From positions 1-64,000 of the forward strand of contig QPGO01000104.1 of NCBI GenBank assembly GCA_008632985.1: a DNA stretch of 64,000 nucleotides, read 5' to 3'. This stretch comes from Psammoneis japonica. Its lineage: Eukaryota. The position numbers and the translations under genes are program-made. The stretch's first letter is position 1. Each line of letters begins with the position of its first letter. The notes beneath the pieces were generated by a model. The model worked only from the letters and a program-made list of their open reading frames with translations. It searched no databases and was not told the DNA's origin. Of the stretch, positions 206 through 2,465 are shown piece by piece.

Positions 206-2465
206 ATGTCGTCTTCAAGCGATGGCACTGACAACACAAATGGCGCCAACCAAGTGCCACCAACGCAAGACAGCAATGATGGTGGCATGCCTCATGACAA
301 GGACATGGGGCTTGTGCCAACCCCTCACCTCTTTGATCAAAAGCTGTTCATGCCCTTGTGTGTTTGTGACGGCGAAGAACTGTCTGCAGAAGAAAAGACG
401 CTTGCGGATGCGAGCATCATGTCAATGAAAGACGGGTTCCAGCTCTAGGTGGGACCTCGCACTGCTGAACTGTGACACAATTATTTTTTATCATCCGTCG
501 TATGTTTCGCACGTACATTTCTACGTGTTCTATTATAAAAAATTGTTCCACACTGCCTGTTTTGCGAAGCCAAAGGCTTTCTGTTATCTGCACTTATGTC
601 AATAAAAATGCGCTGGGTGTGTTCTTTAATGTCTAAAGAACATACCCGGGCATACTGTAAAGAATGTACTTCAAGTGTGGAGGAGGAGATACGTTCGCAA
701 AATTGCCTCTTTTTCTGTTGGCGATCATCAACACATTCATTGCTCAACAATTTTACTGCGGAGCTCGCACGTAGAATTCTACGGGCCCAATGTCACAAAA
801 AGTCCCACCTAGGACTGGAACCCGTCGAAAGTGGCCGGTCTCAGATCTCTTTGCCACAAGTGCAAGCATTTTCGTGATGACAATCCCACACCAAAAAGCG
901 TTTCCACCACAGGCAATTCTGGCCACTTGAAGAAGCGTCTGATGACGCGGTTCTGCGTCTTCCGGCAGGAAGAAGCACGCATCGACAAGCGCCCCTTCAG
1001 CGCTTCCAAGAACTGGAGCCAGGCAGAAGATTCTCACATCATTGAGATTTTAAGTGACCCGACCTTCCAGAAACCCCTCCAGTGCCTTCACCAAAAGGCT
1101 CCACATGTTGTGCTTGACGAAGGTGACCCGCCCCTCATGTCTGTGCACCGACAATTCATTGCTGTTTTGTGCAACAATTTTGACAAGTGCAAACCGACCC
1201 ATCAGTTTCCAGATGACCCACTTCTCAAAGCCTTCAATCCCAATGACAAGACCATTTCTTCCCGTGCTCCAGATGTCTTGAAATTGAGGGTTGGACAGCT
1301 TCGCAGCAGGTTGACAGCAGTGCACAAGGTCGGCACGAAGAGCGGCTCAGATCCGGAAGGTTTTGAGAATGCTCTTGATCTGACTGACCCACTGGGCCAA
1401 TCCATTCTCTGTTGGTGGAAGGCAATTGACCGAAATGGTGGTTCATCTGTTCTCAACAAGTTTGTGTGCCTCCTCCCAGGTGGCTGTGGCATTGACTCGT
1501 CGGATCCCAGCACCATTCAACGCAGCCTGGACGCCGCCAACTCCATCTTGCGCAGCAGGGGAAAGGGTGACAGCTCCTCCAGCAAGTCACAGAGCATGTC
1601 TGAAAGAATCTTGAATGCAGTTGGTGAGATGAAAAGCGACATGATGAATGAGGAAAACAAGGAGAACACGTTTTTCTTGCAGCAGAACAGAGACCGCGCA
1701 CAGAACAAGTCGGAGCGACTGGCCGACGAGATTCGGGCCATGAGGTGTGGAAAGGCTGGTGACTTGAGCAAGCGTGAGAGAAAGATCAAGCAGTGCAAAA
1801 GAGCCCAGAGTGAGTGTGAAGAGCTTGAGAAAGAGGTGGTGAAAGCGCAAAAAGTTGAGTTGGACAGTGACATTGAGCACGACGACGCTTCTTTTCTTCT
1901 GTCTGTGCTGTCCAGCAGCGGCGACGACGAGGTGAGTGCCTTGCATGTTCTTTGTGCTGTTTGTGATGTCAATGATTTGCACCAACTCAACCTTTGCTGC
2001 AAACACAAGAGCCGCCAATGCCACATCAGGAACAAATCCAGGGAAGTCTCTGCTGGGAACTGCTCTGATGGCCACGACCGAGGGAGTGGGTCTACAGAGC
2101 TGGAAGAAGATGTCCATTCTGACAGCAAGAGCGATTCACGCAATGAATCAGTGCACTGCGGCTACATGGAATGCAACAAGCGGAATGAGCCGGTTGGAAC
2201 GAAAGATGAGGCAGAACACCACGATTTCAACTGCTCGGATTTGGGTTCCTGGTCTTCAAACATGTGCTCCAACTTTGAACATTGTGGGCGTTGCTTGCAT
2301 CGTGTTGGTTGCAAAGCTCACCTTGACGAAGATGACCCTGCTTCCCTGACTTGTGGGCACCCTGATTGCACTGGCGGGTCGGAAGTTTGTGCATTTGCAT
2401 CGTGCACCAATGTGGACAACAACACTGCGGATGGTGATTTTCCGTCTTCAGACAGCAGTGAGTAG
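206..2465 (+). pseudogene. Putative PIF/Harbinger ORF1 (accessory, possibly Myb/SANT-like), split by a MITE
   Basis: 206-430 joins in frame to 831-2465 once the MITE and one TSD are removed (...SMK|VAGLRS...). It has a W-x-x-x-E-D motif (NWSQAEDSHII) and is convergent with a Harbinger transposase. Only one Tyr in the 544-aa ORF. Confidence 0.55.
431..826 (+). mobile_element. 396-bp MITE, copy 1 (25-bp TIR, 4-bp TSD GAAA)
   Basis: Ends GACGGGTTCCAGCTCTAGGTGGGAC / GTCCCACCTAGGACTGGAACCCGTC, with GAAA at 427-430 and 827-830. Homologous copies at 33743 and 37224. Confidence 0.95.

Follow-up and report, generated by a model that had tools for sequence, protein, structure and literature searches.

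The first 64,000 nucleotides of contig C104 (1-64000; hereafter, the window) contain three copies of one short transposable element that retain very different numbers of TA dinucleotides, which raises the question of whether TA is lost from inserted DNA in this genome, in which direction, and by what process. An earlier note on this stretch had taken the three copies as a time series, in which later insertions arrive rich in TA and are then progressively eroded to TG or CA. We followed this claim through the whole assembly (91.4 Mb, 597 contigs), and through a comparison of the window with contig C146, which is colinear with it at 6.3-64 kb and nearly identical to it in the genes at 22-33 kb, a stretch with almost no differences between the two. 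C146 is probably the second haplotype.

TA composition divides the window into blocks. The TA observed/expected ratio (o/e) of the whole window is 0.31, with values of about 0.4-0.9 in the blocks in which Pfam recognises ordinary genes (DAG kinase, protein kinase, eS1, F-box and VOMI), and of less than 0.2 in the repeat blocks outside them, where CA and TG are raised in step and many kilobase-long intervals have values as low as 0.0-0.1. The depletion is confined to the repeat blocks and spares the genes, with the exception of one gene allele (6420-12000); the gene block taken as a TA-normal control (Table 1) has a TA-poor gap at 23-25 kb. The eS1 ribosomal protein has its best named homologs in the diatoms Thalassionema (84%) and Mayamaea (81%). 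Several gene sets of the window are duplicated, some copies being TA-normal and others TA-free: those at 25453-29029 and 46527-48104, with a 500-aa ORF of no named family in three copies, and the VOMI and F-box regions at 30900-33100 and 43300-46400, present in two or three copies. Moreover, a 3.5-kb LTR-bounded insertion at 38906-42455, absent from C146, lies between 277-bp direct repeats (95% alike, with TG...CA ends), and contains a 42-bp tandem array and no recognised Pfam domain.

Table 1. Features of the window considered in the analysis (positions are those of the window).
Feature	Position	Strand	Remarks
Copy 1 host, TA-eroded multicopy repeat	77-2465	+	long ORF, open from 813 to 2465 after insertion
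Copy 1, subfamily A	431-826	+	target duplication gaaa
Gene block eroded on the window homolog alone	6420-12000		neprosin-domain ORF at 10276-11175
TA-normal control gene block	17600-33100		DAG kinase, VOMI and F-box ORFs; TA o/e mostly 0.4-0.8
Copy 2, subfamily A	33743-34138	+	target duplication tgga
Copy 3, subfamily B	37224-37619	-	target duplication ggaa
Reverse case	44795-45973		window keeps 26 TA lost on C146 (26 to 0)

The element itself is a 396-bp miniature inverted-repeat transposable element (MITE) with GAC...GTC ends, in which 18 of 20 end bases match in the terminal inverted repeats of subfamily A and 18 of 20 in those of subfamily B. No ORF of 150 aa is present inside copy 1. The 4-bp target duplications are identical on both sides in 132 of 144 copies, while a 5-bp duplication is found in none of the 144, and the target sequences vary widely, being neither TTAA nor AT-rich. 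A search with an exact, TA-blind pattern of 22 bases from the 5' end, which undercounts old copies, gave at least 227 A-type and 217 B-type matches genome-wide, and a reversed control gave none. The reference sequences of the two subfamilies are 77.5% identical, and near-identical copies are 394-403 bp long owing to small indels. Approximately 30 of the 77 A-type loci fall into additional subfamilies, which show 11-60 differences outside TA and CG when set against the A reference; nearly all of these loci are eroded, and two are TA-rich (L075 and L139).

As for a related autonomous element, a 5,244-bp element with B-type ends (C51:128923-134166) carries ORFs of 517, 349 and 456 aa that together make up a broken, transposase-like protein, to which 14 matches were obtained; no longer homolog was found for its N-terminal ORF. 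A distant intact relative of this protein (1,263 aa, 32% over the matched part, C187:97716-101507) lies nearest to the DUF1280 and RAG1-like clusters by language-model features, its DUF1280 match being weak (E 0.013, below the cut-off), and the transposase gave no Pfam match above the cut-off and no PDB sequence match. Chapaev elements make 4-bp target duplications, whereas Transib elements make 5-bp duplications and have CAC ends; membership of Transib was rejected on the absence of 5-bp duplications in the 144 copies and on the GAC ends. With the DDE MITEs that make 4-bp duplications, the family has in common a short, non-coding element with terminal inverted repeats, and it differs from them in its GAC...GTC ends and in its target preference. 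Sola2 has been described with a 4-bp target duplication as well (PMC3627910); on the side of its transposase there is here a weak DUF1280 match, and a link between DUF1280 and Sola would be conjectural. Kolobok, described with a TTAA target and 5'-RR ends (PMC9587614), differs from this MITE in its fixed target.

The sequence hosting copy 1 had been described as a TA-free host ORF. It is not a host gene; it is the ORF of a multicopy eroded repeat, and all eight paralogous loci examined carry the empty site of copy 1, three of them at 94-96% identity. This repeat is possibly, and tentatively, a Harbinger-like transposon, one paralog having a downstream match to DDE_Tnp_4 (a Harbinger-type DDE domain; E 0.0098, below the cut-off). 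In the portion of C146 compared, nothing corresponds to this block.

To establish the direction of change, two sets of copies were assembled. The first, collected by similarity, comprised 38 A and 29 B copies; L067 and L069 (duplicates) and L060 (a run of N) were left out of this set. The second was blind to TA and comprised 77 A-type and 80 B-type loci, the first listed of the 227 and 217 pattern matches; 48 of the 77 A-type loci (other subfamilies or incomplete) and 5 of the 80 B-type loci were removed, homolog pairs were reduced to a single member, and the chimeric L186 was discarded, leaving 29 A and 72 B copies (101). The pooled set comprised 144 copies. The TA-blind copies have TG or CA at 655/986 (A) and 901/2,232 (B) reference TA sites, that is, at 1,556 of 3,218, and CG at merely 9. 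The reverse change, from TG or CA to TA, was found at 15 of 6,999 sites in the 144 copies (4/2,736 plus 11/4,263); the symmetric TA changes named in the earlier note as evidence against it were not observed. Among 4,635 TA site-copies, with gaps set aside, 2,063 had become TG or CA and 76 showed other base changes; CG was read at 10. Expressed per base, T-to-C changes affect 23.0% of T at TpA (595/2,584) and 0.54% of other T (34/6,304), an excess of approximately 43-fold that is a lower bound because sites saturate. CG-to-TG/CA losses were observed as well, at 82/522 (A) and 161/1,872 (B) sites.

As the reference sequences were built from TA-rich copies, the polarity of the change rests on independent arguments: TA, TG and CA occur together in single columns from which CG is missing, whereas genuine CG columns are mostly preserved; TA-rich copies resemble one another most closely (6.9 pairwise differences, against 30.8); 19 TA sites are common to both subfamily references; and a newly inserted copy, described below, is intact. 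These same arguments refute the opposite reading, to which we assign hardly any probability, namely that the TA-poor state is ancestral and TA-rich copies arose by CA/TG-to-TA changes as in repeat-induced point mutation (RIP), or by a decay of CG and a subsequent gain of TA. In fungi, TA is indeed created by RIP, and one TG-to-TA gain is present in copy 3; however, CG is nearly absent from the mixed columns (10/4,635), and the TA-rich allele of the neprosin gene discussed below exceeds the other allele both in frame length and in Pfam score. Each subfamily reference has CA or TG at sites where the other has TA (7/15 and 5/12). Amplification of already eroded master copies within subfamily A was also considered and rejected, pairwise concordance being at chance level. 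Altogether, the process is real and its direction is from TA to TG or CA, conclusions of which we are nearly certain.

Returning to the three copies of the window, copy 1 has lost 11 of the 34 reference TA (7 to CA, 4 to TG) and none of its 18 CG; it keeps 23 TA, as had been stated, between flanks with a TA o/e of 0.04. Copy 2 has lost 21 of 34 TA and 4 of 18 CG and, again in agreement with the earlier note, shows 10 TA losses (5 to CA, 5 to TG), 4 CG losses and no TA gain relative to copy 1. None of the 31 TA of copy 3 has become TG or CA, and one site has become TC. Copy 3 had been read as an old, diverged copy, which it is not: it aligns solely as the reverse complement, belongs to subfamily B, and its 40 best-scoring matches, itself counted, are 98-100% identical. 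Moreover, its site is empty on C146 and in a contig of the sequencing run X1, which skips exactly 400 bases, and on this comparison of sequences it is the newest of the three. Later insertions do, then, arrive rich in TA, copy 3 being both new and intact. Three sites had been put forward as carrying TA in copy 3 and CA or TG in the other two copies; tacTAcgg (column 327) is valid, while ttcgTAcg (column 80) is a fixed subfamily difference (among 57 A copies, 51 CA, 6 CG and no TA), and ttcTAttgg (column 286) has TA in copy 3 alone among the 144 copies and represents a private TG-to-TA gain. Copies 1 and 2 show opposite outcomes (CA versus TG) at 3 of the 11 sites lost in copy 1 and are therefore not ancestor and descendant; they lost TA independently, at least in part. 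The exposures fitted to copies 3, 1 and 2 (0.001, 0.09 and 0.35, respectively) agree with the order 3, 1, 2 of the proposed series, but the reason given for it, the divergence of copy 3, does not hold: this divergence is that of the subfamily, two of the three diagnostic sites fail, and a series formed by these three copies alone is not supported. What establishes the series is the set of copies from the whole genome, together with the comparison of homologs.

Three pairs of eroded homologous copies have 18, 20 and 20 losses in common, with 12, 8 and 4 additional sites at which the two members differ, in part through changes in opposite directions, and a fourth pair has 2 losses in common and 29 sites intact. 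Copy 2 is itself present on both homologs, its counterpart on C146 (L061) having lost 29 of 34 TA. Common losses followed by divergence indicate that loss is stepwise and takes place after insertion. The two sides of the target duplications of L074, L029 and other loci differ by TA-to-TG/CA or CG-to-TG/CA changes, a further sign of change after insertion. Outside the MITE, the window and C146 have an old TA-free block with TPR repeats in common (12000-17000), in which 81 sites are CA in one and TG in the other, indicating independent hits on both homologs after they split.

The pattern of the edits gives further information on the process. At common sites, the outcome in one copy does not depend on that in another (mean z 0.11, sd 1.07, 287 pairs), and strand clustering is absent (235/500, against 223 expected), which points to many separate hits on both strands; editing of one strand in a single pass was ruled out on the lack of such clustering. 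On the edited strand, rates are 0.33 at TAC and 0.31 at TAT, against 0.12 at TAA and 0.14 at TAG (130 strand-sites, p = 3e-11), so that an A before a pyrimidine is edited at approximately 2.5-3 times the rate of an A before a purine. The eroded gene block of the window, which is independent of the MITE, shows the same T-A-pyrimidine bias (63/83, p = 2e-6), with RTAR going to CA (25:9), YTAY to TG (38:11), and survival of YTAR at 7/21 versus RTAY at 1/56. A preference for A-to-G changes at TA and AA, with a ratio of a few-fold between them, is known for polymerase eta, and an error-prone, polymerase eta-like repair synthesis (WA to WG), brought to DNA that is silenced or rich in mismatches, would fit that preference, as well as the private changes of eroded copies outside TA (35 T>C/A>G versus 19 C>T/G>A). 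However, AA-to-AG (TT-to-CT) changes amount to 0.49% against 23% at TA, a ratio near 47 and far above a few-fold, and strand-coordinated tracts are not seen, which makes this explanation very unlikely.

We then considered whether time alone could account for the degree of erosion. TA loss in the TA-blind copies has two peaks: 35 B copies have lost less than 30%, 2 lie between, and 35 have lost 60% or more, the corresponding numbers in A being 5, 0 and 24. This distribution, which resolves into a spike of barely exposed copies and a broad tail, was rejected as proof of an on/off switch, as it is reproduced by saturating site rates and a recent burst. A clock with an equal erosion rate for all copies since insertion, differences among them being those of age (a recent burst plus older copies), would explain the two peaks, since fitted site hazards span 0.03-45 in B (0.11-41 in A) and loss saturates. 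The clock also agrees with copy 3 being both new and intact, with the rise of CG loss, the slower of the two, with TA loss (rho 0.73-0.75), and with private transitions being commoner in eroded (54/20,368) than in intact copies (17/16,800, p = 3e-4), although these extra transitions fit either greater age or off-target hits. Private transversions, on the contrary, are alike (28/16,800 in intact and 41/20,368 in eroded copies, p = 0.47), and several diagnostic B variants exist in both intact and eroded form. The plot of TA loss against divergence outside TA and CG that the earlier note had proposed shows no tracking (rho 0.02-0.24); background divergence was discarded as an age clock, as it amounts to approximately one change per copy, too few to give it more than little power, and the changes of intact copies are rich in transversions, like noise.

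Against the pure clock, homologs of equal age differ. Across 6,420-12,000, the window has lost 150 TA and C146 only 2 in 4,533 aligned bases, with CG losses of 71 and 18, respectively. The neprosin gene located here has had most of its Tyr codons changed to Cys or His on the window allele, with a shorter frame (299 aa and 138 bits in Pfam, versus 410 aa and 172 bits for the TA-rich allele). Two 300-bp copies, 441 bases apart and 99% identical, lie at 8734-9474 inside this block, either duplicated recently or produced by a join in the assembly; C146 lacks a colinear equivalent of 8311-9275. The reverse case (Table 1) also concerns host DNA, and there the TA losses of C146 surround a nearly TA-free, 421-bp element with two 190-bp inverted arms (C146:178532-178952), found on C146 only, which may have seeded local erosion on that homolog. 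Finally, copy 2 has 1 private TA loss and its homolog on C146 has 9 (p = 0.02). Differences of 150 to 2, 26 to 0 and 9 to 1 between sequences of equal age indicate that erosion does not follow age alone. Erosion thus depends on place as well as time; the progressive erosion claimed earlier stands as stepwise loss after insertion, and falls insofar as age was its sole variable.

Setting TA loss against insertion context, as had also been suggested, placed intact copies in CG-poorer flanks than eroded ones. A flank CG o/e above 0.55 was found for 0/5 intact and 21/24 eroded copies of subfamily A (p = 5e-4), and for 13/35 intact and 24/35 eroded copies of subfamily B (p = 0.016), the reverse of what ageing predicts; altogether, a pure clock is unlikely. 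Intact copies may be shielded in CG-poor DNA, but a preference at insertion, or a faster deletion from old heterochromatin, could also produce the link; no second haplotype of the flanks of the intact subfamily A copies was found. Within the element, site rates bear no relation to distance from CG (rho 0.03 and -0.19). We consider local targeting of the erosion very probable.

The run X1, which was separately assembled, may be the source sample, and it thus serves as a check on bases and not as independent biology; the run X2 covers little of the window and was left out. All 18 single-contig differences that were checked in X1 (among 40 listed, with 116 further) match C146, and the changes, which are specific to loci and symmetric between strands, do not occur in gene blocks. 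The small indels among near-identical copies are what one would expect from a sequencing or assembly artefact, a cause that is refuted for the stretch tested and that we credit with practically no probability.

What is observed directly, that is, direction, strand symmetry, timing after insertion, context preference, confinement to repeats and differences between homologs, would be explained as a whole by chromatin-targeted adenine deamination, an account that we hold to be probable. The MITE, a non-autonomous cut-and-paste element, would be the passive reporter of a host mutator that acts on both strands of silenced DNA, changing the A of TpA to G and yielding TG or CA. New copies would be made from TA-rich templates and then eroded hit by hit, with fast sites being lost first and resistant contexts persisting. 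Targeting would depend on epigenetic state, probably on CG methylation, which would also underlie the slower decay of CG, and exposure would be the product of time and local targeting; silencing as the guide is suggested by the block structure, the homolog specificity and the coupling to CG decay. In Phaeodactylum, loss of DNMT5a has been reported to deplete DNA methylation and derepress young transposons (PMC9998398).

Regarding the chemistry, a TadA/ADAT-like enzyme would convert A to inosine, which is read as G, a proposal that we place only slightly above even chances. TadA and ADAT genes are expected housekeeping genes, and the substrate context of TadA is UAC, which is not used here as evidence. 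Nine matches to the zinc deaminase family were found in the genome, and among seven deaminase ORFs examined, three were closest to TadA, two were dCMP deaminase-like, one was RibD-like and one had no family. In one of the three TadA-like ORFs, L244 (C79:87700-89500, minus strand), the deaminase domain shares its open frame with the N-terminal domain of a 2-oxoglutarate dioxygenase, and the predicted protein is a candidate base-modifying enzyme. That shared frame would suit a process in which the damaged base is the T, with 5-hydroxymethyluracil or 5-formyluracil at TpA in silenced DNA pairing with G and giving T-to-C; the outcome is identical, and A-to-G and T-to-C cannot be separated by sequence data. 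Nevertheless, the genome has no Tet_JBP match, although a control was also silent, and no precedent for such a spectrum from thymine oxidation was met in a literature search that was not aimed there, so that a modified T appears quite unlikely. Adenine deamination has the strongest support among the chemistries considered, and agrees with the off-targets reported for the engineered enzyme TadA8e, 94% of which are A-to-G/T-to-C, genome-wide and preferentially at TA (PMC13225742); no three-base preference of TadA was found in the passages of a review searched for it (PMC10661471).

The closest known system is that of Bigelowiella natans, in which TpA-to-TpG/CpA hypermutation of NCLDV and virophage inserts has been reported at approximately 1,000 times background (Mettrop et al., bioRxiv 10.64898/2026.01.13.699255), with activity in 11 of 15 lines and an enrichment of transposon domains among TA-poor genes. 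Both processes change TpA to TpG/CpA on both strands of foreign or mobile DNA; both are patchy (11 of 15 lines there and, as an analogue, one homolog of two here), and a TadA/ADAT-type enzyme is a candidate in both and unproven in both. They differ in that the process here affects a diatom, in which it acts on DNA transposons and on the host genes next to them, that depletion is far deeper (TA o/e 0.0-0.1, versus 0.45 in the viral region there), and that it is accompanied by a decay of CG and by a preference for T-A-pyrimidine that can be measured; moreover, de novo rates are given for B. natans, whereas here there is solely the saturated lower bound of about 43-fold. The words "diatom", "MITE" and "trinucleotide" are absent from the main text of that preprint, and no report of the process in diatoms was found in the literature searched, which reached few subscription papers. 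Deamination of 5-methylcytosine in methylated transposons, known in diatoms in connection with DNMT5a (PMC9998398), would account for the CG-to-TG/CA losses, but cannot give TA-to-TG/CA, which is several times commoner per site here.

RIP of ascomycetes is similar in that dinucleotide-specific transitions erode repeats after insertion and also leak into genes nearby. It is duplication-triggered, premeiotic and RID-dependent. However, RIP hits cytosine and makes TA from CA/TG, while the diatom process destroys TA, and the C-to-T change at CpA that creates TpA was all but missing here (15/6,999). In addition, that a gene allele was hit on one homolog alone favours chromatin spreading over homology sensing, although the block has at least a partial paralog.

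It is doubtful, although conceivable, that a chromatin-guided DNA adenine-editing defence is common to diatoms and chlorarachniophytes, acting homolog by homolog, spreading from transposons to host genes and needing CG-methylated surroundings; if this were true, CG-depleted DNA would be a refuge in which fresh transposon copies stay intact and re-amplify. The MITE family provides a practical reporter for the process, with hundreds of equal 396-bp substrates in different chromatin, for which per-site rates have been estimated. A host gene can lose one of its alleles to the process, which also distorts transposon dating and annotation, the latter because TA loss removes TAA/TAG stops and Tyr codons. 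A repeat-directed A:T-to-G:C mutator mirrors fungal RIP and opposes the usual mutation bias, and within the literature searched it was known until now from one 2026 preprint on a rhizarian alga. With the diatom case, two distant lineages would possess this trait, and the existence of a natural editor of genomic adenine would be indicated.
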